DNA from: Shigella phage Moonfish
Sequence record: PQ613263
DNA: 64,000 nt
Reading direction: 5' to 3' (one strand)
The notes under the pieces: model-generated
What the model saw: the letters and a program-made list of their open reading frames with translations, nothing else
Database searches by the model: none
What the model was told of the DNA's origin: nothing
Position numbers and translations under genes: made by a program
Shown: positions 12,401 through 56,150 of the stretch, in pieces
How the letters are laid out: the number at the start of each line of letters is the position of its first letter
How positions within the stretch are numbered: position 1 is the first letter of the stretch

Positions 12401-15400
12401 ATACCATCCAGGAAGTAGCTGAAACCAAAACAGAAATGGAAACAGTGTTCCCCGTCTATAACAATGAAAAGACACCGAACCAGTTCCTGAAAGCATTTAC
12501 CCTACCAGAAGAACCTAAGTCTCGTACCATTGGTTCTGAGTCTCCGTTGACTGATGTTAAGCAAGCACTGTCTTCTGTTGCTCGCTTTGAAGCATTCACT
12601 CAAAAAGAAAATAACGCTCTCACAGGTGATGTGATTAAGCGTTATCAGGACTTAATGGACTTTGGTGAAACTCTGAAGACTACTTTGTCTGAACGACTGG
12701 CTAAGTTCCTTGCTAACAAAAATGTCGGTAAACGTTTTGCAGAAGGTACGGAAGCTAACCGTTGGGTAGGTGGCAAACTACTGAATATCGTTGAACAAGA
12801 TGGTGACACCTTTAAGTTCAATGACCAGTTGTTAGAGACTGCTGTGCTTGCTGGTCTGCAATGGCGACTAACTGCTACACAGAATGCTGCTGTTAAAGAC
12901 ATGAAAGACGTAGCTGCTATTACGGGTGTAGAAGCATCTCTGTTACCAGAAGGTATTCTGGCTGAGTTCGAGAATGCTCAGACTCTGGTTGAAGCTACTA
13001 ACTCACTGGCTCAGAAGATCGAATCCTACTGGGGTTTGAACCGTAACCCTAATGCACCACTGGGTTATACCAAGGGTATCCCAATGGCAATGGCTACAGA
13101 GATTCTGTCTTCCCTCATTGAGATGGGTGAAGTTAAAGAGTCTATGCTGGATGTGTCTGAGATTGACCCAGATTCCAATAAGACTGTCGGCCTGTATACC
13201 ATTGAGAAGCTGGATGACAATGATGCCATTAACAAATTCCCTACTGCTATTGAGGAAGCTGTCCTCTTAGAACCAGAAGAGAAAATGTATTTCGGTGACG
13301 ACATTCCTTCCGTGGCTCAAACTCAATTACGTAATCCTGCTGTTAAGAATACCCCGGAACAGAAAGCTGCTCTGAAAGTAGAACAGGCTACTGAGTTCCG
13401 TGTACACATGCCGATGGTTAACTTCTATGAAGCTATGGGCCGTGACAACATACTGGAATTGATGGGTGCTGGTTCTCTTAATCCTGAACTGTTGAACGTG
13501 AACACTGCTAAGTCACTGGAGGGTAAAAACCTGTCCGTGTCCATGGCATATGATTCCTTGTTTGGTGTAATCAATCAGATTAAGGAACAGGAGAATGGAC
13601 TAGATACACCTATCCACTATGGCTACAACATGACCCGTGTAGGTCGTATGCAGATGCTTGGTAAGAACAACCCACAGTCCAGCAAACTGGTACGTGAAGC
13701 AATCCTGCCAACCTTCTCTACTATTGACTTGAGTAATGAAAACAGCCAAACGTTCTCTGACTTCCAGTTAGGTCTGGCTCAGGCATTGGGTATCAAGGTT
13801 CATAATATGTCCCGTGAAGCTATGTCTGAAAAGCTGACCAAAGCTTTGGAAGGTAATCTGAAACCTGCTGTTGATATGATGGTTGAGTTTGATAAGTCTG
13901 GTCACTTACCTGCTGATGCAGTTGATATTCTGAAGACATCTCTGGGTGGCGATAAATCATTCGTAGCTCTCATGGCTCTTATGGAATATGCCCGTTACCT
14001 GAACAGTGATGACCGTGCCAACTTTAATACCCCTCTGTACGTTGAAGCCGATGGTGTAACCAACGGTCCGATTAACGCAATGGTATTAATGACTGGTGGT
14101 AAGTTCACTCCAGACTGGATTAAGAATACTGCTAAAGGTGGTTTGTTCTTCGGTAAAGCTGGTAAGACTATGAACGAACATCGTTCACAGGATGACAGTG
14201 TTGACTTGTATGAAGCATCCACCAATGGTCTGCAACAAGCATTGGGTGAATTGCGTAGTACTTACCGTAACAACGTTCCTGTTATGAGCCAGATGAACCA
14301 TCTCCAGAAGTTAATGGACCTGTTCATCAAAGACTTTAACTTGAATGAAGACGGTACTTTGGACCTGAAACGTGGTATCGCTAAAAACCCACTGACTATT
14401 ACCATCTATGGTTCTGGTGCACGTGGTATTGCTGGCAAGATGGTTAGTGCAATTACTGACACCATCTATGAACGCTTCAGTGACGTTCTGCAAGCACGTG
14501 CTGCTGACCCTAGCATTTCCCCAGCTATGGCGATGTTTGGTAAGGAGGCTGCGTCTGAGGCTGATGCTCAGGCTATGCTGGATACTTTCCTTACTTCTAT
14601 GGAAGCACTGACTGGTAATGTTCCAGTTATGCGTAAAGGCGAACTGTCTATTCAACAGGCAGAAGGTGCTCTGACTGGTAAGTTAGACCCTCAGAAGTTT
14701 ACTGTATCTGGTAATGCCTTGAAGAACCTACAAGAGAACATGCTTCACTTGTTCGTTGAACCAATGCGTACAGGTATCCGTAATACTGTTGGTGAAGGTC
14801 TGATGCACTCTACTGAGAACTTGCAGAAGGCTACTCAGATTCAGTCTCTGGTATTGCAGGATATGTTCCAACAAGCAGTACAGGCTAAACTGGCAGAAAA
14901 AGAAAATGACCCAACGTGGAAGAAGGGTGATTTCTTAACACAGAAAGAACTGAATGAAATTCAGGAATCATTATCTCCACTGGCTCCAATGATTGAGACT
15001 GGCGCACAGACTTTCTACATTGCTGGCAGTGAGAATACTGATGTTGCTAACCAAGTACTGGCTACCAACTTAGATGACCGTATGCGTGTGCCAATGAGCA
15101 TCTATGCCCCGTCACAAGCAGGTGTTGCTGGTATTCCATTTATGACCATCGGTACTGGTGATGGCATGATGATGCAGACCCTTTCTACTATGAAAGGTGC
15201 TCCGAAGAATACCCTGAAAATCTTTGATGGCATGAACATTGGTATCAATGACATCACTGATGCAAGCCGTAAAGCTAATGAGGCTGTATACACTTCCTGG
15301 CAGGGTAACCCTATCAAGAATGTTTATGACTCCTTCGCTAAGTTCATGAAGAATGTAGACTTCAGTAAACTGTCTGATGAAACCAAACAGGCTATCGCTA

Positions 15401-18400
15401 AGTCTGCTCTGGAATACGACCAGCGTGAAGGTGCTACTGATGACCTGTTACGTGTTGGTGCTGAACAGATTGAACGTAATCTGCGTAACATTGCTCTGGG
15501 TGTAGATATTCGCCATAAAGTAATGAACCAGGTACAGACTACTGTTGACCAGATGGCTGCTGTAGGTGCTCCTTATGTGAACAACGGTAAAATTTCTCTG
15601 GAAGGTCTGACTGTAGACCAGCAAGTAGCTAAGCTGAACGAACTGTTTGATGCTGAATTAATCAAGCGTCGTGATGCAGTACGTGCTGCTAAAGCAGAAC
15701 CAGTGAAAGAAGTACCGGCGATGGAGCAGGTTGGTCGTGTGCTGAAGTCTGGTGTACGTCTGCTGTCTAACACTGCTATTACTAAGCTGGCTAAAGAGAT
15801 GTCTCCTGAACAGCAAGCAGTATTGAAAGAAGTACAGAACTCCCTTGCTGCTAAAGACTACAAGGTTGTTTATGGTACTCCTGCTCAACTGGATGCTTAC
15901 GCTATTGAGAAGAACATTACTCGCCCAGCACCGGAAGATATTGAAGCTGCTGAAGCTGGTAATGCATACGGCTGGACTAACTTTGATGATAAGACCATCT
16001 ACTTAGTTACTCCTTCCTTAGAGACTCTGGTTCATGAATTGGTACATGCTTCTACTTTCGAATCTGTACTGGCTCACTATGAAGGTACTCCTAATGAAGC
16101 AGTCCAGAATATTGAAGACCTGATGAACCAGTTCCGTGCTCTGGATGTTAAGGATGAATCTCCGGCAGTACGTGAAGCATATGCTGATGCTCTCAATACC
16201 ATTAATGGTCACTTGTCTAATGGCTTTATTGAGCCAGCAATGGCTAAAGCTGCTGCACTTAATGAGTACATGGCATGGGGTTTAACCAACCGTGAACTGA
16301 TTGGTAAGCAGAAGAAAACCACTGCACTTAAGGCCATGGTTCAGTCTGTATATGAAGCAATTAAACGTCTGGTATTTGGGCGTAAGAAAGCTCCTGCTAA
16401 TGCAGATGATATGTTCTCTGGCTTACTGTTTAACTCCTCCGTAGTTATGCGTGGGCAAGCTCCTACTGCTGCTGTGGCTAAGGACACTACCTTGTTCCAT
16501 AGCAAAGCATATGGAGATAACACTCGTCTGGAAGAGTTAGGACAGACCTTCGATAAGCTGATTACTAACTACATTGGTTCAGAACCAGTACAGCAAGTAA
16601 TCCGTAAAGGTAAATTCTCTGATGCAGTAGTGAATGCAACAAAAGTAACTCGTGATGTTCAGGCTCATGGTTTCACTATGAATATGCAGGAACAGCGTCT
16701 CTTTACTAACATTGTTGCTGCACTGGCTACTGAAGCTGCTATTAGCCCAGCTGCTCTGGCTCGTGCACAGGAATACTATGCACACGTTACTAAGAACCTG
16801 ACCGTTGAAGCATTCATGGCTGACCCGGAAAGTACTAACCCTGCTGACCGTTACTACGCACAGCAGAAGTTCGATACCATCATGGGTGCTAACAATATTG
16901 AGTTTGATGCACAGGGTCGTTCTTCCTTACTGCCTACCTTCGTGGCTCTGGCAATGGTAAGTGAAGATGTACGTAACGTACTGGCTGGCATTCCTGTTAT
17001 GAAAGCAGATAAGCAATCTGGTAATACTGTTGATGCAATGCTGACTAACATTGGTACTGCTGCAATGGCTAGCCTGAATGCTCGTGTAGCAGGAGACACT
17101 AAAGCTACCAACGTGCAAGAAGGTATGGATGCACTGGCTCAGACAATCATGCAGACTAGCCTCAATGCACAGTCTTTCTACGATTCCGTTGCTACTCCTA
17201 GTGGTAATGCTATTGACCGTGCTAACCAGTATCTGGTGGACTCTATTGATGTACTGTCTACTCGTGCTTTAGATGGTGCACGTAATGTTGCAGCTAATAC
17301 CAAGAACCCATTGGTTAAAGGTGCTGCTCATGCTGCACAACTGGTAGCTGCTATTGCTACGGAGAAGAATGGTGCAATCGTAGCCGAAGGTGTTATGGCT
17401 GCAATGAACCAGGGTAAGGTATGGCAACCCTTCCATGACTTAGTTAATGACTTAACTGGTCGTACTAAGAGCAATGCTTCTGTATACGATTTAATTAAAG
17501 CAGTACGTGCACAGGTACAAGCTGACCGTCAGCAATTCCGTGAACATCTGCCTACCACTATCGCATCTAAGTTCAGCCGTAAGCTGACTAATGATGAGTG
17601 GAAAGCAATGCATACCGGCATGGGTAAAACTGATTTAGCTGTACTGCGTGACACTATGTCACTGGCTGAAATCCGTGACCTGTTGTCTGACCAGAAGATT
17701 GTTGACCGTGAAGTGAACAAGCTGGAAGCAGATTTGCAGAAACAAGCTGGGCGTAACTGGCCACTGATTAACCGTAAATCTAAGCAACTGGCTCAGTACA
17801 TGATTAACGGCACAGTTGGTAATAATCTGCTGCGTAATGCTACTGCAATCTCTCGTATGCTGGGCGAACGTCAGTCTGCACGTTCTACTGTAGATGTAGC
17901 TCAACTGGATAAACTTATTACCCTGTATGCACTGGAAGCAATGAGCAAAGCTGACCGTGAGCTGTTATCTTCCCTGGCTCAATCAGAAGTTGATGGAATG
18001 GATTTTGCTACTTCTTATCTGGTTGGACAGCGTAAAGATGAAATGGCTAAAGCTAAAACTGATAGCCGTGCAACATTGAACCAGTATAAAGGGCATATCC
18101 CTAGCGAGACTAAGCAGGGTGTTAACCTGATTGTTGCTGAAGATAGCCAGTTTGCTGATTTGATTGAGAAATCCTATGTACGTCTGGGTACTTATCAGGG
18201 TAGTTCTGCTAACCGTGGGCCAGCACGTAGCTACTACTTCGCACCAGTACAGGCACAGGCTCCATTCTCACAGGGCATCTTACAGAACGTTCGTAATACT
18301 GCTGGTGGTGTAGATCTTGGTACAGGCTTTACGATGGGTTCTATGGTAGCAGGTCGTATCACAGACAAGCCTTCAGTAGACCGTATCACTAAAGCTCTGG

Positions 18401-19836
18401 CCCGTGGTGAACGCGGTAATGAACCACTGCTGCCTGTATACGATGACAAAGGTAATGTAGTTGCATATGAGCAGTCTATAGACCCTAACATGCTGAAGCA
18501 CATTGAGGGTGAGAACCATCTTGCACGTGCAATCGGTGTATGGCGTGGTCGTCAGGTGGAAGAAGCTAAGGCTCAGCGTTTTAATGACATGCTGATAGAG
18601 AACCTGCATAGCATGTATGAGAACGACATTAAGATGTCTGCCTCCAATAAGTCCCAGTACGTGAACCTTCTTGGTTCTAAACTGGACCCAGTAACTGCTG
18701 ATGCTCTTAAGCTGATGAACAGTGAGACACGTCAGAAAGCAGAAAGCCTGTTTGGTAATGGTGAACTGTGGGTACGTCGTGACATGCTTAATGATGCTCT
18801 TGGTTATCGTGCAGCTTCTGTAGGTGATGCCTGGTCTGGTAATTCTCGTTGGTCCCCAGAAACGCTGGATACCTTCAAGAAAGCTATGTTAGGTGTGTTC
18901 GGCAATCGTGCTTATAAGTACACAATGGGAGGTGAGAACCTGGTACAGAACTTAGTTAAAGAAGCTAAGACCCTGATTGTAATTAAGTCAGTAGTCGTAC
19001 CTGCTGTTAACTTCTTGGCTAACCTTTACCAGATGGTTGCTCGTGGTGTACCAGTTAAGAACATTGCTAAGAGCATTCCACAGAAAACTGCTGAGATTAA
19101 CCAGTACCTGAAATCTCGTCTGCGTCAGGTAGATGCAGAAGCAGAATTACGTGCAGCTACCAACCCGAACCAGATTCGTAAGCTTAAGGCTGAGATTCAA
19201 TCCATCTCTGATAGCCATAAGCGTATGAGTATCTGGCCTCTGCTGGAAGCTGGTGAGTTCTCTTCAATTGCAGATGCTGGTATTGGGCGTGATGACATCC
19301 TGATTACCGAAGGTAAACTTCAGGAATATATGGATAAACTGGCTGATAAGTTGCCTAAGTCTGTACGTACTGCTGGGCGGTATGCACTCATCACTAAGGA
19401 TACTGCTCTTTTCCAGGGTATCCAGAAAACCGTTGAGTACTCTGACTTTATCGCTAAAGCAATCATCTATGATGAATTGACTCAGCGTAAAGGCAAGACT
19501 CGTGAAGAAGCACTTGGACGTGTAACTGAAGAGTTTGTTAACTATGACCGTCTGCCTGGTCGCTTCCGTGGATATATGGAAAGCGTTGGTTTAATGTGGT
19601 TCTACAACTTTAAGATTCGTTCTGCAAAAGTTGCAGTATCCATGATTCGTAATAACCCAGTACATGCAGCAATGGCTATGTTGGCTCCAGCTCCTACCAT
19701 GTTTGGTAACGTTGGTCTGCCTATTCAGGACAACGTATTTAGTATTGCTGCTAAGGGTGGGCTGGATTCTTCTTGGGGCTTTGGTCAGGGGCTGCGTGCT
19801 CACAACCTGAACCCTTGGTTGAACCTGGTAAACTAA
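9466..19836 (+). CDS. virion-encapsidated giant RNA polymerase (vRNAP, N4 gp50-like)
   Basis: Single uninterrupted 3456-aa ORF (10.4 kb) at the end of the virion gene module; a protein of this size in this position is the hallmark of N4-like phages. All antisense ORFs inside it are short. Confidence 0.9.
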   Translation: MNRKHAMSTFDRLAGFADSITNAKQVDVSTATSQKQAAQGQSPFQLTPENAYNLQTGRVGNLGTGAFEPGSLQADFTQASPLEIINKYGNEKGLQILNSRANAADVVRQDLSKQRTNAEAFGDTLSGVGLGVANTLGGIAALGTGLVNDNAGASIASGMDWLNEGVRNLQSDALNATRKVVQNQNQISAQKNQKLYEQDIKNGENDLVASLSRIGRDAFDSVANTLDNGMAATDGLSEGVGSLFTAGPLIRGVSALGKVMVGGDKAVRGITLAAELGSRPAQVALSAGRVAAPAIAIGGMEAGGAYQQTASEIMKMSHQELASKSPVYQQHIADGLPPDEARRQTASETGITAAGLTAPVAAATGPLVSRFELNPLRVGSLAGAGSNMLRETVEEGIQSGFGQFAQNTAIKENVDASRDTLKGVGEQAGLGALYGFGSAGVAQAPGATVKAAGAATAPVVRTTLAGASLVGNALAKAASPITNILVQRGEEVAKRNEQASPVADATVNAAAQEATAQAEQAQATVQEAVDAMDISPEEKAAATQYAADLTQAMNFDPVELEQANPVIREAVSGSTNRVEAIQKMADLVNTAEDPNVQMEAAIQMYDNIMSMDSFINRDPGALANLEQGSPAATIVDQFSGLMANVQNTPKVLRAFRAIHSMIQEQAEAGKLKATEEANQAQANNIAMAADVSPEVLDADSVNMVLKHASEGKITLGNRQRAALQSAAALLQGAREFDAKAEELGLRPQDIVSKQIKTDESRSNEGQYSALQHAKRIRSAYNSGNFDLAYAYLSDFMKFAQHMQNKVGALNEHLISGNADKNKSVHYQALSPSREWVRSRTGLGVNPYDTKSVKFAQQVGLEAKTVADIANALATAYPELNVSHVKVTSLDSRLNKPAAQVVKEFRQGGLDATQSQQTNEPVNQVDESPAPVQEDTTTVQPKAKPVVENKTAPTKETSPKTEEVSTTKSETVEATLTNEDTIQEVAETKTEMETVFPVYNNEKTPNQFLKAFTLPEEPKSRTIGSESPLTDVKQALSSVARFEAFTQKENNALTGDVIKRYQDLMDFGETLKTTLSERLAKFLANKNVGKRFAEGTEANRWVGGKLLNIVEQDGDTFKFNDQLLETAVLAGLQWRLTATQNAAVKDMKDVAAITGVEASLLPEGILAEFENAQTLVEATNSLAQKIESYWGLNRNPNAPLGYTKGIPMAMATEILSSLIEMGEVKESMLDVSEIDPDSNKTVGLYTIEKLDDNDAINKFPTAIEEAVLLEPEEKMYFGDDIPSVAQTQLRNPAVKNTPEQKAALKVEQATEFRVHMPMVNFYEAMGRDNILELMGAGSLNPELLNVNTAKSLEGKNLSVSMAYDSLFGVINQIKEQENGLDTPIHYGYNMTRVGRMQMLGKNNPQSSKLVREAILPTFSTIDLSNENSQTFSDFQLGLAQALGIKVHNMSREAMSEKLTKALEGNLKPAVDMMVEFDKSGHLPADAVDILKTSLGGDKSFVALMALMEYARYLNSDDRANFNTPLYVEADGVTNGPINAMVLMTGGKFTPDWIKNTAKGGLFFGKAGKTMNEHRSQDDSVDLYEASTNGLQQALGELRSTYRNNVPVMSQMNHLQKLMDLFIKDFNLNEDGTLDLKRGIAKNPLTITIYGSGARGIAGKMVSAITDTIYERFSDVLQARAADPSISPAMAMFGKEAASEADAQAMLDTFLTSMEALTGNVPVMRKGELSIQQAEGALTGKLDPQKFTVSGNALKNLQENMLHLFVEPMRTGIRNTVGEGLMHSTENLQKATQIQSLVLQDMFQQAVQAKLAEKENDPTWKKGDFLTQKELNEIQESLSPLAPMIETGAQTFYIAGSENTDVANQVLATNLDDRMRVPMSIYAPSQAGVAGIPFMTIGTGDGMMMQTLSTMKGAPKNTLKIFDGMNIGINDITDASRKANEAVYTSWQGNPIKNVYDSFAKFMKNVDFSKLSDETKQAIAKSALEYDQREGATDDLLRVGAEQIERNLRNIALGVDIRHKVMNQVQTTVDQMAAVGAPYVNNGKISLEGLTVDQQVAKLNELFDAELIKRRDAVRAAKAEPVKEVPAMEQVGRVLKSGVRLLSNTAITKLAKEMSPEQQAVLKEVQNSLAAKDYKVVYGTPAQLDAYAIEKNITRPAPEDIEAAEAGNAYGWTNFDDKTIYLVTPSLETLVHELVHASTFESVLAHYEGTPNEAVQNIEDLMNQFRALDVKDESPAVREAYADALNTINGHLSNGFIEPAMAKAAALNEYMAWGLTNRELIGKQKKTTALKAMVQSVYEAIKRLVFGRKKAPANADDMFSGLLFNSSVVMRGQAPTAAVAKDTTLFHSKAYGDNTRLEELGQTFDKLITNYIGSEPVQQVIRKGKFSDAVVNATKVTRDVQAHGFTMNMQEQRLFTNIVAALATEAAISPAALARAQEYYAHVTKNLTVEAFMADPESTNPADRYYAQQKFDTIMGANNIEFDAQGRSSLLPTFVALAMVSEDVRNVLAGIPVMKADKQSGNTVDAMLTNIGTAAMASLNARVAGDTKATNVQEGMDALAQTIMQTSLNAQSFYDSVATPSGNAIDRANQYLVDSIDVLSTRALDGARNVAANTKNPLVKGAAHAAQLVAAIATEKNGAIVAEGVMAAMNQGKVWQPFHDLVNDLTGRTKSNASVYDLIKAVRAQVQADRQQFREHLPTTIASKFSRKLTNDEWKAMHTGMGKTDLAVLRDTMSLAEIRDLLSDQKIVDREVNKLEADLQKQAGRNWPLINRKSKQLAQYMINGTVGNNLLRNATAISRMLGERQSARSTVDVAQLDKLITLYALEAMSKADRELLSSLAQSEVDGMDFATSYLVGQRKDEMAKAKTDSRATLNQYKGHIPSETKQGVNLIVAEDSQFADLIEKSYVRLGTYQGSSANRGPARSYYFAPVQAQAPFSQGILQNVRNTAGGVDLGTGFTMGSMVAGRITDKPSVDRITKALARGERGNEPLLPVYDDKGNVVAYEQSIDPNMLKHIEGENHLARAIGVWRGRQVEEAKAQRFNDMLIENLHSMYENDIKMSASNKSQYVNLLGSKLDPVTADALKLMNSETRQKAESLFGNGELWVRRDMLNDALGYRAASVGDAWSGNSRWSPETLDTFKKAMLGVFGNRAYKYTMGGENLVQNLVKEAKTLIVIKSVVVPAVNFLANLYQMVARGVPVKNIAKSIPQKTAEINQYLKSRLRQVDAEAELRAATNPNQIRKLKAEIQSISDSHKRMSIWPLLEAGEFSSIADAGIGRDDILITEGKLQEYMDKLADKLPKSVRTAGRYALITKDTALFQGIQKTVEYSDFIAKAIIYDELTQRKGKTREEALGRVTEEFVNYDRLPGRFRGYMESVGLMWFYNFKIRSAKVAVSMIRNNPVHAAMAMLAPAPTMFGNVGLPIQDNVFSIAAKGGLDSSWGFGQGLRAHNLNPWLNLVN

Positions 19837-47828: not shown

Positions 47829-47861
47829 TTAACTTAATGCATAATCCGTTTCAAGAATGTC
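47829..47861 (-). CDS. RNAP II large subunit, 3' mini-exon encoding the C-terminal foot (D)ILETDYALS
   Basis: Closely resembles the T7 RNAP C-terminus RDILESDFAFA; exact 3' junction inferred. Confidence 0.55.
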   Translation of the reverse strand, partial: DILETDYALS

Positions 47862-48988
47862 CTGCCAGAGGCTGTCATCCAGCTTACCCGCAGAGAACTC
47901 TTGTCCCAGTACCTGAGATAGGATGAAGCCCAGCAAGTCACTCTTAGCAATGTCAGATAGAATCTGATTGTACTGACGACGTAGGTCATTACCATAGTTA
48001 GGATGACAACGAAAACCATTAGTTAAACGAGTCGTTAGCTCGCCCTTACCTTCCATGATTAACATGAAAGCCATATGTAGCATCTGCTTGTTTACGAGCA
48101 AGCATTGCCTCCTCAAGTGTGTCGTACGTACCCAGACCGATCTGTTTGCGATTGACTGTGATGTGTGCCTGAAATCTACCAGAAGGCAGTATTCTCACAC
48201 CGTTCACTTTGCTTGAAGTATTACTAGATAAACTCATATTCATCTGGTTCTGTCTGCTGGTTACATTTCTCAAATTAGACCAACGATTGTCGTTTCTAGT
48301 ATGATTGATGTGGTCCACCTGGTTAGGTGTTTCCCCAGTTTCCATTATCCAGATTATTCGATGTAGTAAGTACTCTTTGCGGCCCAGGCTAACGGATAGA
48401 TACCCTTCTTTGTGAGGATACCCCACAATTGTTCCGGCTAACCCACTGGCAGAGTCATAACGATGAGTCACTAGCCCACTATCCCTGTCATACCTTAAAA
48501 CCTTCTGCAAAGATTCTTGGGTAATATTACCCAAGTTTATTATTAGGTTTTTACAGGTAGAGCATAGATGACCTATTGGACTCTTTCTAGCATCATAGAA
48601 GTTACAAACAAACTCATTAGAGCATTGCTTGCAACTACAGATAGCTGTGTACTTACCAGTTTTACGTAATATTTGAGAGTTATCTAACATATGGATTCCT
48701 TAGTAATTTTGCATACAATTTCAGATTGTATCCTAACCAAGGAAGTAAGTCTCCAATTTTCACTGGAGTATCGGACTATATCATCACCCACTAATCAGTG
48801 GGGCAAGGCGCTTGGGTGGTCACTTGACTCACCTACTCTACTCACATACGAAATGCTTTCGATAGTCTCTGAACCTTCCCTCATAGAGGGCTTGGCTGCT
48901 GATTGGCATATCCATAGGACTTAGCTTTCCAGCAATTCACCTTGTTTTCGACACGGATTACTCCGTGAAGGATCATTTATGTTTAATC
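47862..48988 (-). mobile_element. probable group I intron (~1.1 kb) in RNAP II large-subunit gene, carrying an HNH-AP2 endonuclease ORF
   Basis: Upstream ORF stops right after ...VLTVHD, 9-10 codons short of a T7-like C-terminus that is encoded 1.1 kb downstream in frame-compatible position; splice after caU with intron ending caG satisfies U/G group I rules. Confidence 0.55.
48046..48690 (-). CDS. HNH endonuclease with AP2 DNA-binding domain (intron-encoded)
   Basis: 214 aa; own AAGGAA RBS; HNH_3-like GYLSVSL...HRIIWIMETGETPNQVDHINHTRNDNRWSNLR; C-terminal AP2-like GVRILPSGRFQAHI...GTYDTLEEA. Confidence 0.8.
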   Translation of the reverse strand: MLDNSQILRKTGKYTAICSCKQCSNEFVCNFYDARKSPIGHLCSTCKNLIINLGNITQESLQKVLRYDRDSGLVTHRYDSASGLAGTIVGYPHKEGYLSVSLGRKEYLLHRIIWIMETGETPNQVDHINHTRNDNRWSNLRNVTSRQNQMNMSLSSNTSSKVNGVRILPSGRFQAHITVNRKQIGLGTYDTLEEAMLARKQADATYGFHVNHGR

Positions 48989-50014
48989 ATGTACAGTCAA
49001 TACAGGGAATGGCTTCTTAGGTAAAGTGTCCAGCATGTCTGCTACTACCTGACGGTCAACCATAGCAATAGTGCCTGGGTCGAGATAGTCGATAATAGAC
49101 ATAGATAAGAATCCAGACTTCTCGTAGTGTTCCCACAAGGTCTGTACCATTTCCATGTTACCTTCAATCTCCCCATACTCTGCTGGGCCTGTGTCGCAGA
49201 GTTCACGAACAGCAGCAACCAGGTTAGCATCGAAGTTACAACGACGCAGCATCTCGCGTACCACCATCCCATCAATAGAGTGGGTGATGTTAGCAGAGAG
49301 CATACGAGTCTTCTCTTCAGTACCCTGAACCATGCGGGTAATGTCGAATGGTTTACCTAAGAAGTTAACAGTCTGTACTTCTGGAACCATGACCTTAATG
49401 ACGGCATGGAAGTTGTCAGACAATACCCATACGTAACGGTTAGCATCCGGGTTACCACATTGCAGTAAGAACTTGTTCAATGCCCAAGGCCCACTAGCAA
49501 CAGTTTCCATTACATTCTCAAAAGTCTTGAGACGGATACCCTCACCGAATACTTCTTTAGGCTTAGCTTCTGAACCGTAGAATGCAGTCATAACTGCCTG
49601 CTTAGTGTCACTACGCTTAATACGAGATGCTTCACCAAGGATGTCCAACATCTTGTGATAGATAACTGTATAAGCATCACGACGTAATGGCTTACCGTTT
49701 TCACCCATGTAGTTAACTACGTTACACAGTTCAGCAGCAGAACGGTCACCAGTCAGGCAAGCCAGTAACTGCAAGCCTGATGATGTAGCATCCAGAGCTA
49801 CGGCATAGCCAATAGGCTTACCGGCTTTCATATCTTTCCATGCGTTTACACCTGCATAGAACAATGCGGATTCTTCAGCTTCATCTACCAGATTAAGCAG
49901 GTTAGCTTCGTTTTCATCGAACCAGCTAATACGTTCATCCCATGTTTTCTTATCCAGACCCATGTTATTCGCAATATCAATCTTTAAATATTCTTTCGCT
50001 GTGAAAAGCTGCAT
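48989..50014 (-). CDS. phage RNAP II large subunit (N4 gp16-like, T7-like catalytic half), 5' exon
   Basis: LDATSSGLQLLA (T7 motif A FDGSCSGIQHFSA), KQAVMTAFYGS (motif B), ITHSIDG (T7 H784 region), RELCDTG (motif C). Confidence 0.8.
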
Positions 50015-50597: not shown

Positions 50598-50598
50598 A

Positions 50599-51417
50599 TT
50601 AATCCTCGTTTACTAACTCTTTATCTGCGAACTCTATAACTGCCTTATTGTAAGAGGTTCCCGCATAGTTAATATGGTATCCACATGCATATGTTCTTCC
50701 CCTCTTATCAAATTTATGTGCTAGTGAGAAGTTATTACCTTCTTTGGTCACTAACTCCATTACTTCCTTAGCTGTACGGCTGTACTTCTCAAAGGCTTTA
50801 ACTCGTTTCTCATAGTCCTGACGGGTTTCACCCTCTTTGGGTTTATCCATGTTAGGACGAGAGTCTTTTACATAGTTGGCAACGTCCCAGTTAATACAGA
50901 GTCGTTGGTTGTTCATACGGTTAATGTGGTCAAGGCAGACGTCCATCTCATGATGGTTCTTCTTGAGGATGATTGAGCCTTTAGATTCATAGTAGCCAGT
51001 GTCCCGATTAGTCAGGACTGGCTTAGGCTTACTGACGATAGGTAATGGATACTGGAATGCCTCCAGTTCCATCTGAACATCTTCACTAATCTCATAAATA
51101 ACACCGAACTTGTCGATGGTAGGGTCATAGTTGAAGCAGTCATTCTCTGCCATCTTATACAGACAGTCAGCGATATACTGAGCGTCATCTGAGTGACTCA
51201 TGAGAGAGCCAATCATAGTCTGAATGTCAGCACGTTTATGTAGGGCAATCTGCACCATTGCATCAATGAGCAGCTTATAATCAATTTCTAAATAGGCGGC
51301 GAATGCCTTAAAGTCAATTTCTTTGGAGTCCTCAAATTCCTTCCTCATGCGAGGGAGTAATTGGTTTTTGTTGAAAAGGATTTCAAGTTGCTTCTGATGT
51401 TCAATAGATGAGTACAT
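50599..51417 (-). CDS. phage RNAP II small subunit (N4 gp15-like, T7-like N-terminal half)
   Basis: 272 aa; KFDKRGRTYA matches the T7 RNAP DWRGRVYA motif; RBS AGGAG; directly upstream of the large subunit. Confidence 0.7.
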   Translation of the reverse strand: MYSSIEHQKQLEILFNKNQLLPRMRKEFEDSKEIDFKAFAAYLEIDYKLLIDAMVQIALHKRADIQTMIGSLMSHSDDAQYIADCLYKMAENDCFNYDPTIDKFGVIYEISEDVQMELEAFQYPLPIVSKPKPVLTNRDTGYYESKGSIILKKNHHEMDVCLDHINRMNNQRLCINWDVANYVKDSRPNMDKPKEGETRQDYEKRVKAFEKYSRTAKEVMELVTKEGNNFSLAHKFDKRGRTYACGYHINYAGTSYNKAVIEFADKELVNED

Positions 51418-51450
51418 CGCATATTCTCCTAAATGTTATTAATAACCAAA

Positions 51451-51465
51451 AGCTGCGGAGCAGCT
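51451..51465 (-). promoter_or_regulatory. conserved GGA-triloop hairpin, candidate vRNAP-type early promoter
   Basis: AGCTGC-GGA-GCAGCT (6-bp stem, 3-nt loop) ~40 nt upstream of the RNAP II small-subunit start; identical 17-mer recurs at 54508-54524. Confidence 0.45.
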
Positions 51466-51470
51466 ATTAC

Positions 51471-51851
51471 CTAAAAGGTTCCCCAGTAGATATAGTCATC
51501 TCCCAGGATAGGTTTCCAGGCTTCGTCAAACATGACGTTGCCTGTAGCATTTGCAAACATAGGGGCAATGTCCTTGTCTTCATAACCAGCCAGTCCACAA
51601 CCAATGCGTGTTACTTTAAAGTCCCACTCTGGGTGTGCTGCTGCATACAGGATGAATGCTGCTACAAATTTCTCAATATCCTCTAAGGACATAGTCTTGA
51701 TTGACTGGTTTTTGGTTGGGATTGCATAGCTGCAACCATAATGGCCTACGCCCATACCCCAACGAGCACCGTGCTTCTTATATGCAACTTTCGCTGCACC
51801 AGCACCGTGACGGCCTGCTAAATTACTACCGAATACTAATATCTCTTTCAT
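51471..51851 (-). CDS. hypothetical protein with Gly-rich loop after first beta-strand (Rossmann/SLOG- or macro-like?)
   Basis: 126 aa; ILVFGSNLAGRHGAGAAKVA motif. Confidence 0.45.
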   Translation of the reverse strand: MKEILVFGSNLAGRHGAGAAKVAYKKHGARWGMGVGHYGCSYAIPTKNQSIKTMSLEDIEKFVAAFILYAAAHPEWDFKVTRIGCGLAGYEDKDIAPMFANATGNVMFDEAWKPILGDDYIYWGTF

Positions 51852-51855
51852 GCTA

Positions 51856-52176
51856 TTAATCCTTTGGTTTAAGAACTTGGAATGCGAACACAGGACGTTT
51901 ACTACGCCACTGGTTCATAGCTAGTTCACTAGCAGGAGAGCCATCATGTAAGTCATATATGAATGTAATCATATACTCTGGTTCCTCTGGGAAGTTCTCT
52001 GTAGAGAACGGTAGACCTGCTTCTTTTAATACAGGAACCAGTGGTGATTCAGCTGCACAATAAATAATGAACTTTTCGCTGAATGCTTTACTGGTCTGAG
52101 ATACGTAATCAATATTACGCATCATCTTATCGACATCAGTAAATGTATTATCATGTACTACTACGATGTTATTCAC
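51856..52176 (-). CDS. hypothetical protein
   Basis: 106-aa ORF. Confidence 0.45.
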   Translation of the reverse strand: MNNIVVVHDNTFTDVDKMMRNIDYVSQTSKAFSEKFIIYCAAESPLVPVLKEAGLPFSTENFPEEPEYMITFIYDLHDGSPASELAMNQWRSKRPVFAFQVLKPKD

Positions 52177-52430
52177 TCTACTTTCTCCAGGGTTAGATAT
52201 ACTGTATTCATTTGAGGCACATAATCACAAAAACCAATTTCCTCTTGTCTGCCACTAGACTTCCAAATACAGTTTTCAGTTAGTTTAGGCTTTCTACTAA
52301 ATCCAATTAGTGAGGCATTCTTACTCTTCTGAGGACGAGGTAATAAGGCTACATATTTAACCCATAATGGGACTTCAATAGTTTGTCCCATATAGTTAAA
52401 TGATTTAGTTACAGGGAATGTAATAATCAC
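52173..52430 (-). CDS. hypothetical protein
   Basis: 85-aa ORF. Confidence 0.4.
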   Translation of the reverse strand: MIITFPVTKSFNYMGQTIEVPLWVKYVALLPRPQKSKNASLIGFSRKPKLTENCIWKSSGRQEEIGFCDYVPQMNTVYLTLEKVE

Positions 52431-52790
52431 TTAGTACCTCACCACTATTACTTTCTTATTATTTAACCGAGTCATGATATCAATCATGTGTTTGGTTCCT
52501 TTTGACTTACCATCCCAGAATGCTACAAGAGTATCTGCGAAATTAGCCATTTCAGTATTACGTACATAACCTGCACGCTTACCTAATCTGTCCCAGTCAG
52601 CAGGAAATTCATGTATTATCATCCCTGCCTCTTTCCAGAGATTATATGCTGTAATGTCTGCTCCTCTAGCCATACCACATACAAGTTCAGGTGAATCAGT
52701 TATTTCACCAGATTCTACTAGCTTCTGTAATTCAGCAATCATGCGATTAGTGTCAATGAAGTCACGTCCACCAGCTACAATTAGTCTCAT
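52431..52790 (-). CDS. SLOG-superfamily (DUF2493-like) nucleotide-binding protein
   Basis: 119 aa; IVAGGRDF ... GMARGAD ... FWDGKSKGT pattern characteristic of DUF2493/SLOG proteins (pattern-based). Confidence 0.5.
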   Translation of the reverse strand: MRLIVAGGRDFIDTNRMIAELQKLVESGEITDSPELVCGMARGADITAYNLWKEAGMIIHEFPADWDRLGKRAGYVRNTEMANFADTLVAFWDGKSKGTKHMIDIMTRLNNKKVIVVRY

Positions 52791-53008
52791 TTCTGATACC
52801 CCTGAATATAGTTAATACGGCGAATACGTTGAGTAGATGCCTTAACAGCCATCTGATGATTTTCTTCTTTGTGCTGATTTTCCAGCACCTTAGCCCATTC
52901 TTCCTGGTTCCGTTGTTTCTGTAATATACGACTACAACGTTTATGATTGGCAACTCCACGTCCTTTCTTACAGACTGGGCATATACCATAATCGTTTGAG
53001 TACATCAT
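52787..53008 (-). CDS. small Cys/His-containing basic protein (zinc-ribbon-like)
   Basis: 73 aa; CPVCKK...HKRC. Confidence 0.4.
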   Translation of the reverse strand: MMYSNDYGICPVCKKGRGVANHKRCSRILQKQRNQEEWAKVLENQHKEENHQMAVKASTQRIRRINYIQGYQK

Positions 53009-53313
53009 TGGCTTAAAGCCTCCATTAATATTTTACGAATAACGTTAACATCAGATTCAGTACCAATTAAACCAACAGGTTTCTTTGTACTATCTGTGAC
53101 AAAGGATGCAATCCTTTCCATCTCTGCTGTAATTAATTTGTCACCACTAATAAGACGATTACGAAGGTAAGCCTCATAAGCTACCTCTATATCTTCTACT
53201 GTGGTTCTTTCATTACGAGTGAATGGATTACTTAATGGGAAGGGTAAATGTACCCGTATATTCCTGTCAGCTACCTTAGCTAAGTGAGGGAGTATACATA
53301 CTATTTCATTCAA
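53005..53313 (-). CDS. hypothetical protein
   Basis: 102-aa ORF. Confidence 0.45.
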   Translation of the reverse strand: MNEIVCILPHLAKVADRNIRVHLPFPLSNPFTRNERTTVEDIEVAYEAYLRNRLISGDKLITAEMERIASFVTDSTKKPVGLIGTESDVNVIRKILMEALSQ

Positions 53314-53512
53314 GATTCTTTCTCCTATTTAAATACATATCTAAACTATTCAAGAATAAAAAATAGGAGCCTCCTATTGGAGGACTCCTTACTATTTGAT
53401 ACATGGGTGATTGAAGGTAACAATCTTACGTACTGGTTCAGATGTCTGTTGCTTAGCAGCCAGACGCCCTTTCATCTTTTGTACGTCAGCTTTGGTTCCC
53501 ATGATTAATGAC

Positions 53513-53686
53513 TTACGCATGTTTAGTACTCCACATAAAGTTATAAGGTTTACCGTTACGTACAATTCTTACAGCCATTTGATAACCATTGATTTGTACA
53601 ACACCATAGTGTCTCTTTTGGTCACCAGTCTGGTTCCGTCTGAAGATACACTCTTCAATAGCATCATTGATATTAGTGAACATCAT
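53513..53686 (-). CDS. hypothetical small protein (57 aa, below track cutoff)
   Basis: AGAGGA RBS then ATGATG; its stop overlaps the start of a further 41-aa ORF (53395-53520). Confidence 0.3.
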   Translation of the reverse strand: MMFTNINDAIEECIFRRNQTGDQKRHYGVVQINGYQMAVRIVRNGKPYNFMWSTKHA

Positions 53687-53871
53687 TGGTTCCTCTTTGC
53701 AAACTCTTCTGCTTGTTGCTTGTAGTACTGAGTCATTGCTTTCTTGTGTTTAACACTAGCAATGAGACACTCGATAGTAACGAATGGCAGCTTAGCAATA
53801 AGCAGCCACTTTTGACGTAACTTCCAGCCTAGAAAGTAGAAGATTACACAGAAAGCGATGAAGTCTAACAT
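53683..53871 (-). CDS. small membrane protein
   Basis: 62 aa; hydrophobic N-terminus FIAFCVIFYFLGW. Confidence 0.35.
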   Translation of the reverse strand: MLDFIAFCVIFYFLGWKLRQKWLLIAKLPFVTIECLIASVKHKKAMTQYYKQQAEEFAKRNQ

Positions 53872-53982
53872 GGTTATTTCCTCTTCTAAGATAGCTCTAA
53901 TGGGATAGGTTTTAATTTTAGACCCCCTTCGTCGAAAGAGGCGTAAAAGTTAAACTTAGCTTATCGCATAGTTAAAATAAAA

Positions 53983-54002
53983 GGACTCCCCGAAGGGAGT
54001 CC
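53983..54002 (-). terminator. intrinsic terminator (minus strand)
   Basis: GGACTCCC-cgaa-GGGAGTCC hairpin with T-run on the minus strand. Confidence 0.55.
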
Positions 54003-54011
54003 AGTTGTTGA

Positions 54012-54398
54012 TTAGAAAGTCAGTTTACGAGCATATTTATTCTCATCGGCAGGAATAGATTCTTCCTGAGCCTTCACGCGTCTTAACTGAACTTGCAGGT
54101 TAATGATACCTTCTTCACCTGGTTCCAGGTTCTGAGCATATTCGATTAACTGTTCCAGCAAATCGTTCTGTGCACAACGCATAGCACGGAAGTCAGCATT
54201 GCTGCTATTAGTAGGCAGTGCTTCCTGAGTATCCAGTGGAATACCAGTAGGCAGAGAGATGAATTTCTCATCATCAGAGCCTTCATTAGCAACATAACCA
54301 ATGTTCAGCCAGAACTGAGCCTTAGGCTTAGCAGCTTTAGTTTCAGCAGTGGTAGCAGCAACGTTAGATTGACCGAAAGTGAATTTTTGAATAGACAT
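54012..54398 (-). CDS. hypothetical early protein
   Basis: Likely start at MSIQKF (GGAG RBS 8 nt upstream); the longer track ORF (to 54497) would begin inside the promoter-proximal leader. Confidence 0.5.
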
Positions 54399-54508
54399 TT
54401 TGTACTCTCCAGATAAATGATTGTTTGATTGATGGGTTTGTCTGTCGGTGACTAAACCCAAGAAAAGACTTAGGATTTCAATGATTAGTGGATGCATTTA
54501 CGTCCTCA

Positions 54509-54523
54509 AGCTGCGGAGCAGCT
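54509..54523 (-). promoter_or_regulatory. conserved GGA-triloop hairpin, candidate vRNAP-type early promoter
   Basis: AGCTGC-GGA-GCAGCT, identical to the element at 51451-51465 including one flanking A on each side. Confidence 0.45.
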
Positions 54524-54527
54524 ACTT

Positions 54528-54731
54528 TCAGACCGACTGCAATACTGACTTATCGTGAGGTAAGTCCTCAAGGGAGTTGAATACTTCTTCTGTGCTATCC
54601 AATCGGATACCAATGGATGGATCTTCAACCATTACACAGTTGTAATCAGTTGATTCATTTACTTTTTGTAACTCAAATCCACCATGTACAAAGAACTTTT
54701 CACCATCTTTAACGTCAACAAATGTAGCCAT
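54528..54731 (-). CDS. hypothetical small protein
   Basis: 67-aa ORF. Confidence 0.4.
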   Translation of the reverse strand: MATFVDVKDGEKFFVHGGFELQKVNESTDYNCVMVEDPSIGIRLDSTEEVFNSLEDLPHDKSVLQSV

Positions 54732-54785
54732 TTTATTACTCCAGTAGTTATAGGGATACCCAATAGAAGCGGAGCTTCTTGGTTT

Positions 54786-55139
54786 TTAAGACAAGCGTTT
54801 AAGTAATTCTGCCTTAGCAGACTCATACTCTTGTTTAGCTTTAGTGAGGTCAATGGTTGACTCACCCCAGTGAAGGATATCTATTGTATAGGTTGTAAGA
54901 ACATCGACTGCATCTTCGAAGCGAGCCAGTAGTTCTTCCTTATCAGGACCATCGAATTGTTCCCATTGCCATACATAACCGGATAACTTAACTGTTTCCC
55001 CTTTCTCAAAGTAAGGTTCTTCTCCAAATAGGAAAGTAGAATCTTCAGTTAATCGGATATGTTCTCCTTCCAATTCTCCTACGATAATTGTTCCAATAGG
55101 GATGTCAGAATTACCCCTGATACAACGGAATTTAGTCAT
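54786..55139 (-). CDS. hypothetical early protein
   Basis: 117-aa ORF. Confidence 0.5.
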   Translation of the reverse strand: MTKFRCIRGNSDIPIGTIIVGELEGEHIRLTEDSTFLFGEEPYFEKGETVKLSGYVWQWEQFDGPDKEELLARFEDAVDVLTTYTIDILHWGESTIDLTKAKQEYESAKAELLKRLS

Positions 55140-55200
55140 GATTTTCTATCCTAGAAGTAGATAGTTATCTACTTAGTCTATCTATCTAATGTTTATAAAA

Positions 55201-55220
55201 GGAGACTCCGAAGAGCCTCC
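55201..55220 (-). terminator. putative terminator/attenuator hairpin
   Basis: GGAGACTC-cgaa-GAGCCTCC imperfect hairpin; weak T-run. Confidence 0.35.
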
Positions 55221-55232
55221 ATATTTGATTTA

Positions 55233-55553
55233 CTATTTAGTCAGGATGTCGATTACTTTTGAATATTCTGCGTTATAGATACGAGCGTTCTCTGAATCTT
55301 TGCAGAATTCTTCGATACTTTTCTTACGCATAGTCTCGTTCATAGCTGTTTCTTCAGCTAATTTGTTTACGAATGTATGCATTTCTAATTTAGTACGGAT
55401 GGCTTGTTTCTCTGCCATAGTAGATACATATGAATTAAGCATACCTACTGCTTTAGTAGCTGTGCCGAATGTATCTGCAACAGTAGTAGCAGCTGAGTTA
55501 ACAGTACCCAGTAAAGTTCCTGCGGTCATACGTACAGTAGCGGTAGTAGTCAT
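55233..55553 (-). CDS. hypothetical early protein
   Basis: 106-aa ORF downstream of the hairpin at 55596-55610. Confidence 0.5.
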   Translation of the reverse strand: MTTTATVRMTAGTLLGTVNSAATTVADTFGTATKAVGMLNSYVSTMAEKQAIRTKLEMHTFVNKLAEETAMNETMRKKSIEEFCKDSENARIYNAEYSKVIDILTK

Positions 55554-55595
55554 GATGATAGCTCCAATAGTTGATGATAGGACGACATGTCCATA

Positions 55596-55610
55596 ACATG
55601 CGGAGCATGT
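55596..55610 (-). promoter_or_regulatory. GGA-triloop hairpin, candidate vRNAP-type early promoter
   Basis: ACATGC-GGA-GCATGT (6-bp stem, 3-nt loop, same C-GGA-G core) ~45 nt upstream of the 55553 start. Confidence 0.45.
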
Positions 55611-55711
55611 GTAACGTGTAAGGTGGGGTAGGGTAGTGGCTACAGGGTCAACATACCGGGGGGGATGGTTGAGTGTAAGGGTGTAGCCCCAGCCACACCA
55701 CTAAAGCTGAA

Positions 55712-55820
55712 CATAGCTATGATGAAATCCCTAAGAAAAAATATGAGAAGTACTTTCCCTATGCGACTACTGCTAGACATAGCTATCAACATTTTGACAT
55801 GCAAAAATATCATAGCTATC
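55712..55820. repeat. three copies of palindrome CATAGCTAT(G/C) phased 66 and 33 bp apart
   Basis: Copies at 55712-55721, 55778-55787, 55811-55820 in a 267-bp intergenic region upstream of the 55596 hairpin. Confidence 0.5.
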
Positions 55821-56147
55821 TCACTTATAAGCAGCTAAATAGGAGGGAGCATACACCAGGAATATGGATTGAAGGGTATCGCTCGATGTGAAGGTAAGGG
55901 TGTACTTATCAGTGTTCACATGCCAGGGGGAATGTACATATGTAGACCAGGGTAATTCCTTTCCTGGTTCCTGAAGTTTTACAATAACTTTCCTGCCTAG
56001 TATTAGAGCCAGACCTTTCACTTCATGAAGGGTTTGCTCATCTGGTACTAGGATAATAGGAGTGAGTCTACCTGGTTCGAGGTCTTGTAAGGTTGTATGG
56101 GCAGTGGGATTGGGTCCACCAGCATAACCTATCTTAGTGAGTTTCAT
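55821..56147 (-). CDS. small early protein, member of paralogous family (ILVPDEQ..HE..GL motif)
   Basis: 108 aa; core IILVPDEQTLHEVKGLALILG shared with 56848, 57456, 57736, 58336 ORFs. Confidence 0.5.
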   Translation of the reverse strand: MKLTKIGYAGGPNPTAHTTLQDLEPGRLTPIILVPDEQTLHEVKGLALILGRKVIVKLQEPGKELPWSTYVHSPWHVNTDKYTLTFTSSDTLQSIFLVYAPSYLAAYK

Positions 56148-56150
56148 TTG

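Follow-up and report, generated by a model that had tools for sequence, protein, structure and literature searches.

Upstream of the early genes of Shigella phage Moonfish lie short, perfect DNA hairpins with a GGA loop, and the question they raise is whether they are promoters at which an RNA polymerase injected from the virion begins transcription, as in phage N4, or signals of another kind. In our reading, four such hairpins in the window (the whole 64,000-nucleotide stretch analysed here, from record PQ613263) very probably serve as early promoters for the RNA polymerase that is packaged in the virion and injected with the DNA (vRNAP), a conclusion drawn from sequence comparison. The promoter determinants, their register, strand and position, the covariation of the stems, the orthology to N4 promoters P1-P3 and the conservation of the polymerase contacts are established here; hairpin extrusion, vRNAP binding and initiation in Moonfish would follow by analogy with N4.

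The window comes from an N4-like coliphage (genus Gamaleyavirus) whose early genes lie on the minus strand, which makes the plus strand the template (Table 1). In alignment, N4 nt 4-411 corresponds to window 55296-55691, which puts the N4 left end (also nt 1 of many Gamaleyavirus records) at about 55691-55695 and places the physical left end of the Moonfish genome at about window 55695. The four hairpin sites lie ~90, 920, 1180 and 4240 nt inside this end, the first to be injected, in the same orientation as the early genes.

Table 1. Predicted early promoters and associated features of the Moonfish window.
Feature	Position	Strand	Description
Predicted early promoter, N4 P1 ortholog	55596..55610	(-)	ACATGC-GGA-GCATGT on plus/template strand; before gp1 homolog; predicted start G 55592 (-), 39-nt leader to gp1 homolog
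Predicted additional early promoter	54765..54779	(-)	AGAAGC-GGA-GCTTCT, stem = N4 P2 stem; before ORF 54528..54731; predicted start G 54761 (-), 30-nt leader to that ORF
Predicted early promoter, N4 P2 ortholog	54509..54523	(-)	AGCTGC-GGA-GCAGCT; before gp2 homolog; predicted start G 54505 (-), ATG of gp2 homolog just 8 nt on
Predicted early promoter, N4 P3 ortholog	51451..51465	(-)	AGCTGC-GGA-GCAGCT; before gp15 homolog; predicted start G 51447 (-), 30-nt leader to gp15 homolog
gp1 homolog	55233..55553	(-)	66% identical to N4 gp1; first early gene after P1-like promoter
Small early ORF, 67 aa	54528..54731	(-)	behind extra promoter 54765-54779
gp2 homolog	54012..54497	(-)	66% identical to N4; ssDNA-binding cofactor of RNAPII; after P2-like promoter
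gp15 homolog	50599..51417	(-)	65% identical to N4; RNAPII small subunit; after P3-like promoter
Canonical terminator-like hairpin after gp1	55201..55220	(-)	GGAGGCTCTTCGGAGTCTCC then TTTTAT; homologous to N4 nt 494-513
Canonical terminator-like hairpin after gp2	53983..54002	(-)	GGACTCCCTTCGGGGAGTCC then TTTTATTTTA
Virion RNA polymerase gene, N4 gp50 homolog	9466..19836	(+)	3456 aa as ORF

An earlier note on this DNA had described an identical 17-mer pair and a third hairpin, and sequence search confirmed both. The sequence AGCTGCGGAGCAGCT occurs exactly twice on the plus strand (51451-51465 and 54509-54523), against an expectation in shuffles of 0.06 matches even when 2 mismatches are tolerated, and each copy sits in the 17-mer AAGCTGCGGAGCAGCTA (51450-51466 and 54508-54524), with the identity between the two ending 1 nt outside the stem; ACATGCGGAGCATGT is located at 55596-55610. 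The fourth perfect copy, at 54765-54779, had been overlooked. The distance of 40-110 nt to the downstream ORFs given in the earlier note holds at two of its three sites, with 41 nt from loop centre 51458 to ATG 51417 and 50 nt from loop centre 55603 to ATG 55553; at 54509-54523 it is either 19 nt (loop centre 54516 to the gp2-homolog ATG 54497) or 119 nt (to an internal ATG at 54397 with a ribosome-binding site). At the added copy, loop centre 54772 lies 41 nt from ATG 54731.

The determinants against which the hairpins were compared were taken from a 2015 review and two 2026 papers. The N4 vRNAP promoters have a stem of 5-7 bp, a 3-nt loop and a G:C closing pair, and require -12A, -11A/G, -10G, -8G and +1C on the template, with the start 8 nt downstream of -8 (PMC4496689); a GGA loop confers high vRNAP affinity (PMC13037366). 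On the plus (template) strand all four Moonfish sites have a 3-nt loop closed by a perfect 6-bp stem, with the loop region GC-GGA-GC, the closing pair C(-9):G(-13), and -12A, -11G, -10G, -8G and +1C in exact register, the +1C being precisely 11 nt from the loop centre; the non-template strand correspondingly reads C at -8 and G at +1 and +2. In each case the hairpin is also the predicted minimum-free-energy DNA structure of the site (-4.7 to -5.7 kcal/mol). The register was checked against the N4 P2 oligonucleotide from cryo-EM (PMC13492108), which corresponds to N4 nt 557-573, and a motif search of the whole N4 genome (70,153 bp) returned exactly three hairpins, at 96, 565 and 4554, all within the leftmost 10% and equal in number to the mapped promoters. 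One position departs from this pattern: a purine at template -1 normally stacks on the initiating GTP in N4, and the Moonfish sites have A at 55596, 54765 and 51451 and an off-consensus pyrimidine, T, at 54509, as have 5 of the 33 unique sites in relatives.

On its own, the heptamer GCGRAGC shows no enrichment in the window (5 observed vs 5.2 expected). The full motif, defined as the heptamer with a stem of at least 5 bp and scored with or without +1C, occurs four times in 64 kb, against a mean of 0.11 (0.02 with +1C) in 300 Markov-1 simulations, none of which gave a count above 2; all four lie on one strand, the template, within 4.2 kb. The earlier note had proposed a search of the genome and of related phages, and this yielded, besides the fourth window copy, a consistent picture across 15 genomes: a stem of at least 5 bp accompanies 49 of the 50 core heptamers on the coding strand, and 48 show GG at +1/+2, whereas those on the opposite strand have the stem in one of nine and the GG in none. 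Positions -14 to -8 and the GG at +1/+2 are essentially invariant, while -15/-7 and -16/-6 are free to vary if paired, with double changes in 17/33 and 15/33 unique sites, respectively. Sliding the partner column destroys the pairing in the stem; the percentage of paired positions is to some extent built in, since the set was preselected for stems of at least 5 bp, a selection that dropped only 1 of the 50 heptamers. At the level of sequence, the natural variation in the 15 genomes is in agreement with the published N4 biochemistry and crystal structure. Individual sites follow the same pattern: a 30-mer at the 55596-55610 site is identical in 9 relatives, the orthologs of 54765-54779 in ST4 and K57alpha1.2 differ by compensatory stem changes, and N4 4546-4562, AAGCTGC-TCC-GCAGCTT followed by ttGGtaattaat, is near-identical to the 51451-51465 site.

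The polymerase predicted to read all four hairpins is the product of ORF 9466..19836, whose identity to N4 gp50 is 66% over the whole protein and rises to 72% within the mini-vRNAP domain. The residues K114, R119, W129, K849, K850, D901 and R904 are kept; K267, one of two intercalating-hairpin lysines, is Asn. With the stem, loop, -8 and +1 determinants present, sites at the P1-P3 positions and the polymerase contacts conserved, the N4-type vRNAP promoter reading that the earlier note had offered for its three main hairpins is supported.

If the N4 scheme is transferred to Moonfish, negative supercoiling by gyrase would extrude the inverted repeats as cruciforms once the left end enters the cell. 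Host SSB would melt the non-template arm, and the template-strand arm would survive because 5'-GC-GGA-GC-3' folds into a mini-hairpin of unusual stability that contains a sheared G:A pair. The surviving hairpin would be bound by vRNAP through W129 and R119 to -11G, K114 to -10G, D901 to -9C/-10G and, via the major groove, R904 to -8G; binding would unlock the active site, and rifampicin-resistant synthesis would start with GTP-GTP eight nt downstream of -8, at the four minus-strand G residues of Table 1. The predicted transcripts would carry gp1, the 67-aa ORF, gp2 and gp15-gp16 and together supply RNAPII and its cofactors. The points that count against are the template -1 pyrimidine and the 8-nt start-to-ATG gap at 54509-54523, the K267N replacement and the T-rich tail at 51451-51465.

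The earlier note had also listed a further copy at 58243-58255. This sequence, CCTAC-GGA-GTAGG, shares only the C-GGA-G with the others; its stem has 5 bp and the GC..GC core is missing. As a fifth promoter it was rejected: it has template -8A and +1T (non-template T at -8, A at +1), its non-template loop is TCC, CCA or CTA among relatives while the stem covaries, it forms an internal helix of a conserved multi-helix non-coding element in which 12 of 49 pairs covary, and it sits at the right genome end, which is injected last. Scanning 50000-59000 against Rfam (E up to 1) gave no match for the hairpins or for the 58243 element, so neither belongs to a curated RNA family, and a covariance model of the element recovered only its source sequences (window and Moo19), with none in N4 or Kpn16-P2.

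Three of the four hairpins start 4-6 nt past an upstream stop codon and positions -4 to -1 are T-rich, as would be expected if they acted as RNA, as intrinsic terminators or 3'-end stabilisers closing the upstream unit, and not as promoters. A terminator scan of the transcribed strand, which demanded a GC-rich stem with a run of at least 5 T directly after it, within 8 nt, passed 51465-51451(-), with the moderately T-rich tail TTTGGTTATT, but none of 54523, 54779 and 55610. The hairpins have 6-bp stems with only ~4 T behind them, whereas in the canonical terminator-like hairpins of the region a TTCG loop caps a GC-rich stem of 8 bp and the T run is longer. A terminator, moreover, needs no invariant loop, no invariant -8 and no GG 11-12 nt from the loop centre (48/49 sites), and the orthologous sites in N4 are experimentally mapped starts. 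We therefore consider it very unlikely that the hairpins are terminators and not promoters; the terminator or processing role that the earlier note had kept in play is improbable as their main role, given the invariant loop and GG spacing in 15 genomes and the separate canonical terminator hairpins. A secondary, additional terminator role beside promoter function may exist. That the hairpins are truly bifunctional, serving as vRNAP promoters on template DNA and, when read through as RNA (hairpin then UUxU), pausing or terminating transcription or protecting the 3' end, seems unlikely, although less so than termination in place of promotion; were it so, every early unit would be insulated, and the extra promoter and the off-consensus P2 ortholog would re-tune the doses of gp1, gp2 and RNAPII relative to N4.

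Promoters for RNAPII (gp15/gp16), the phage's second, middle-gene RNA polymerase, might also look like this, since the middle promoters of Pseudomonas phage LUZ7 are GC-rich hairpins (stem of at least 6 bp, loop of 3-4 nt) that precede a G start by ~15 bp (PMC9163698). The window gp2, gp15 and gp16, however, are 65-67% identical to their N4 counterparts, and N4 RNAPII uses AT-rich -7 to +2 promoters with a preferred start at T (PMC9163698). Three of the hairpins precede genes for RNAPII or its cofactors, which are needed before RNAPII exists, and all copies of the motif fall in the first 4.3 kb, whereas middle genes cover about half of the genome; this assignment is still less probable than a terminator. 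Least credible of all is that the hairpins, although perfect inverted repeats of which two share the 17-mer, are palindromic dsDNA sites bound by a regulator dimer, or else a mini-repeat that is mobile or arose by chance, since the arms vary with compensation around an invariant, asymmetric centre (the opposite of an operator pattern), the orientation relative to transcription is constant, the 17-mer identity stops 1 nt past the stem, and chance would supply 0.02-0.11 per window.

The early promoters for injected vRNAP proposed here have relatives of several degrees. The template core GCGGAGC is exactly the d(GCGNAGC) motif of extraordinarily stable DNA mini-hairpins (Hirao; PMC13037366), so that the template arm would withstand SSB and the complementary GCTCCGC arm would not; d(GCGNAGC), however, is a physico-chemical motif class and no promoter family, and is found at ssDNA phage origins too. 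The early promoters of Pseudomonas phages LUZ7 and LIT1 (PMC3715699), mapped by ONT-cappable-seq (PMC9163698), are likewise hairpins with a 3-nt loop that serve an injected vRNAP and have a G start, but LUZ7 belongs to another subfamily with another sequence consensus, and its nine early start sites lie 13-14 nt from the hairpin centre, with stems of at least 4 bp; we found no transcript mapping in the literature for Schitoviridae besides LUZ7. Closer is Klebsiella phage KP8 (Kaypoctavirus), for which early promoters P1-P4 have been predicted (PMC6950046 Table 1; 'early promoter' features of GenBank MG922974). Its four hairpins follow the same order (before gp1, a small ORF, gp2 and the gp15 region) and have the same core and the same TGG start, the 54765-54779 promoter matching KP8 predicted 'P2' and the ORF behind it being 51% identical to the ORF behind that promoter; the stem sequences differ, and both sets are predicted solely by similarity to N4.

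The nearest comparison is with N4 P1, P2 and P3 themselves (Haynes & Rothman-Denes 1985; Glucksmann 1992; Davydova 2007; Gleghorn 2008; as reviewed in PMC4496689), which were mapped experimentally, whereas the window sites are predicted. N4 has three sites against the four predicted here, its stems are 5, 7 and 7 bp against 6 bp throughout, its P1 loop is GAA where the window ortholog has GGA, and in the window P2 ortholog the template base at -1 is T and the -3 to +6 stretch is diverged. Shared are the template core 5'-GC-G(G/A)A-GC-3' on a 5-7 bp stem, -8G, +1C 11 nt from the loop centre, RNA beginning with GG, the positions before gp1, before gp2 and between gp14 and gp15, and a polymerase of the same family with identical base-contact residues; the 51451 and 54509 sites carry the N4 P3 stem and the 54765 site the N4 P2 stem. 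The analysis fixes the early transcription map of a Gamaleyavirus-type phage at four predicted vRNAP promoters, and its value is mainly one of annotation: no new principle is involved, the sites being of a well-known kind and direct counterparts of the three mapped N4 promoters.

The GGA-loop hairpins in the early region of Shigella phage Moonfish, an N4-like coliphage, are real and occur far above chance. The bare heptamer GCGRAGC is at chance frequency in the window (5 copies vs. 5.2 expected), but once a stem of 5 bp or more is required there are 4 vs. 0.11 expected (0.02 with +1C added), and the highest count in any of the 300 simulations was 2. All four full-motif copies are borne by the plus strand, within a span of 4.2 kb. 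The earlier note's duplicated 17-mer and 55596 hairpin are confirmed, but its list was incomplete, having left out the copy at 54765-79.

The minus strand carries ORFs from about 50.0 to 58.6 kb; because these early ORFs run minus, the plus strand is the template and the GGA loops lie on the template strand. The 50-58.5 kb segment shows 85-91% identity to Gamaleyavirus (G7C-like) genomes over 50-70% of its length, with no identical record in the phage collection searched. Between 50000 and 59000, sigma-70-like promoter matches are rarer than in shuffles (7 vs. 24.5 +/- 5.4) and terminator-like hairpins commoner (16 vs. 5.7 +/- 2.4), consistent with an early region not transcribed by the host RNA polymerase.

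Promoters of the N4 virion RNA polymerase (vRNAP) have in common the region from -17 to +1, where inverted repeats flank a GC-rich heptamer centered at -11; the closing G:C pair and the 5'G and 3'A in the loop are needed if the hairpin is to extrude and be stable, while vRNAP recognizes template -11A/G, -10G, -8G and +1C, transcription beginning eight nucleotides downstream of -8 (PMC4496689). The contacts run from W129 and R119 to -11G, K114 to -10G, D901 to -9C/-10G, and R904 to -8G (PMC4496689). As a DNA mini-hairpin, GCGGAGC is extraordinarily stable, and the KD of vRNAP on GGA-loop promoters is ~2 nM (PMC13037366). Our promoter numbering is fixed by the cryo-EM P2 template oligonucleotide (...CCAAAAGAAGCGGAGCTTC...; PMC13492108), since it matches N4 nt 557-576 as the reverse complement.

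With the loop center taken as -11, the 55596, 54765, 54509 and 51451 sites all carry template -12A, -11G, -10G, -9C:-13G, -8G and +1C, and at each the predicted RNA begins with GG. The Moonfish vRNAP (66% identical to N4 gp50 overall, 72% across the mini-vRNAP domain, which spans residues ~972-2077) keeps K114, R119, W129, K849, K850, D901 and R904, likewise the initiation residues K437, R440 and E557; K267, of the intercalating hairpin, is replaced by Asn. The proposal that the GGA hairpins are vRNAP promoters was upheld for the three sites first named and extended to the fourth, with the N4 determinants in register and gp1, gp2 and gp15 homologs downstream. By sequence, the four elements are orthologs of the thoroughly characterized N4 promoter class, and initiation from them in Moonfish is predicted.

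Coordinates of the polymerase gene, hairpins, predicted starts and neighboring features
Feature	Position	Strand	Remark
vRNAP ORF	9466..19836	plus	N4 gp50 homolog
15-mer AGCTGCGGAGCAGCT	51451-65 and 54509-23
Identical 17-mer around AGCTGCGGAGCAGCT	51450-66 and 54508-24
ACATGCGGAGCATGT	55596-610
AGAAGC-GGA-GCTTCT	54765-79		found by scanning exhaustively for GGA loops with perfect stems
CCTAC-GGA-GTAGG	58243-55
Predicted starts	55592, 54761, 54505, 51447	minus	loop-center register
gp1 homolog	55233..55553	minus	66% to N4; directly downstream of 55596 site
gp2 homolog	54012..54497	minus	66% to N4; directly downstream of 54509 site
gp15 homolog	50599..51417	minus	65% to N4; directly downstream of 51451 site
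Canonical terminator-like hairpin after gp1	55220-55201		homologous to N4 494-513
Canonical terminator-like hairpin after gp2	54002-53983
gp16 homolog exon 1	50014..48986	minus
gp16 homolog exon 2	48014..47832	minus
HNH-type ORF within intron	48046..48690	minus

The search of the genome and related phages that the earlier note had suggested bore the motif out. With early-region sequence added from 14 relatives (N4, KP8, G7C, Bas96, ST4, K57alpha1.2, PGN829.1, phiG17, pSb-1, ZQ2, IME11, AN24P2, Moo19 and Kpn16-P2), making 15 genomes, the coding strand holds 50 GCT[CT]CGC heptamers; 49 form a stem of 5 bp or more, and 48 of these carry GG at +1/+2 as well. The opposite strand holds nine heptamers, one of them with a stem that long and none followed by GG. 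The 33 unique sites have +1G in 32 cases and +2G in all 33, neither base being part of the search pattern. Double-sided changes occur at -15/-7 in 17 of these sites and at -16/-6 in 15, and stem pairing is 91% overall, falling to 22-47% once the partner column is slid. An invariant asymmetric center, covarying arms and a GG at fixed distance fit a promoter recognized by structure plus sequence.

These same three features do not fit terminators, the other reading of the hairpins, even though stop codons shortly precede three of the four and the one at 51465-51451(-), with its TTTGGTTATT tail, passed the terminator scan: the remaining three fail that scan on the transcribed strand, and the region has separate canonical terminator-like hairpins, whose GC-rich stems are 8 bp long, with TTCG loops and T runs. 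At most, the promoter hairpins may have a weak secondary effect as terminators. Nor do duplex operators fit a center that is asymmetric yet invariant, flanked by freely covarying arms with GG at a fixed distance.

Two variants were seen among the relatives. GCTGT-TCC-ACAGC (796-808 of the G7C locus L003, also at pSb-1, ZQ2 and Moo19 loci, and absent in the window) has its loop closed by A:T rather than G:C, keeps -8 and +1 G in the proper register with stems of 5-8 bp, and is conserved in the four genomes, perhaps as a natural exception to the need for a closing G:C, perhaps as a non-functional relic. AACGC-TCC-GCGTT (L003 503-515, G7C), with C rather than G at +1, is the sole core hairpin among the 49 without GG at +1/+2.

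The hairpin at 58243, put forward as a further promoter copy, was rejected: it has template -8A and +1T instead of -8G and +1C. Its place is the right end of the genome, flanked by the gp70 and gp71 homologs, and vRNAP promoters are thought to be confined to the first-injected left end. Its stem is retained among ten aligned relatives, with a compensatory change in phiG17 (CCAAC/GTTGG), while its loop varies (TCC, CCA or CTA) and Moo19 has a longer hairpin in its place. RNAalifold puts it inside a multi-branch structure, as one of the two inner hairpins. Of 49 pairs in that structure, 12 show changes on both sides across nine Gamaleyavirus and Moovirus sequences, and a strong terminator-like hairpin (58186-58161(-)), which directly precedes the gp71-like ribosome-binding site, forms its end; folding the single sequence gives z = -3.1. 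Because of its variable loop, multi-branch fold and right-end place, we regard it as a different element.

The surrounding sequence is a conserved structured non-coding element of ~190 nt (58151-58345, minus strand), between the gp70- and gp71-like ORFs, comprising an upstream hairpin (ACCGCC...GGCGGT), the multi-branch domain around the 58243 hairpin and GGTACATAAGTACC, and a CCGU...ACGG hairpin. It had no Rfam match, and its covariance model found no match in N4 or Kpn16-P2; we class it as a candidate for either a small RNA or a regulatory leader.

Farther along, a group I intron (~48018-48985, minus strand; Rfam Intron_gpI 48994-48751, 91 bits, E 1e-23) lies inside the gp16 homolog, the large-subunit gene of RNAPII, the phage middle-gene RNA polymerase, inserted exactly after motif C "...TVHD". 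vB_EcoP-ZQ2 (94% identity) is the only phage record searched that also has it; the gene is uninterrupted in G7C, Bas96, phiG17 and PGN829.1. A free-standing 193-aa ORF (50016-50597, minus strand) between the gp15 and gp16 homologs occupies the position of the annotated HNH homing endonuclease in G7C (15.1), Bas96 and PGN829.1. The window's only tRNA gene is at 21651-21729, minus strand (ARAGORN: tRNA-Ile, anticodon AAT).

The assembly reads through a genome-end junction at ~55680-55700, where nt 1 of N4 (TGGTGGGGCTACACCCC...) aligns, as does the first nucleotide of many Gamaleyavirus records. N4 nt 4-411 correspond to 55296-55691, where those records also start, therefore placing the physical left end at about 55695. 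Because the assembly crosses this junction, the genes on the minus strand at 55.7-58.6 kb are right-end genes of the virion DNA; a junction-spanning ORF (55640..55813) is probably spurious. The N4 terminal repeat is 390-440 bp, and the P1-like promoter would lie inside the terminal repeat, as predicted from N4.

Measured from the left end, the four sites are roughly 90, 920, 1180 and 4240 nt in, with a gp14 homolog adjoining the 51451 site on its upstream side. The complete N4 genome has exactly three copies of the motif (centers 96, 565 and 4554), one ahead of gp1, one ahead of gp2 and one between gp14 and gp15, with no comparable motif elsewhere. The sites before the gp1, gp2 and gp15 homologs are therefore positional orthologs of the mapped N4 promoters P1, P2 and P3. 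Only 8 nt separate the P2-like predicted start from the ATG that opens the full-length gp2 homolog, and there is no Shine-Dalgarno sequence; N4 is arranged likewise, its leader being 10 nt. A second in-frame ATG (54397, minus strand) has a strong ribosome-binding site, GGAGAG, and a shorter gp2 is annotated in several relatives. The N4 vRNAP promoter class is already well characterized, and Moonfish adds one more phage's set; its extra 54765 site corresponds to "P2" of Klebsiella phage KP8, whose four GenBank-annotated promoters were predicted from their similarity to N4, and the ORFs downstream of the two are 51% identical.
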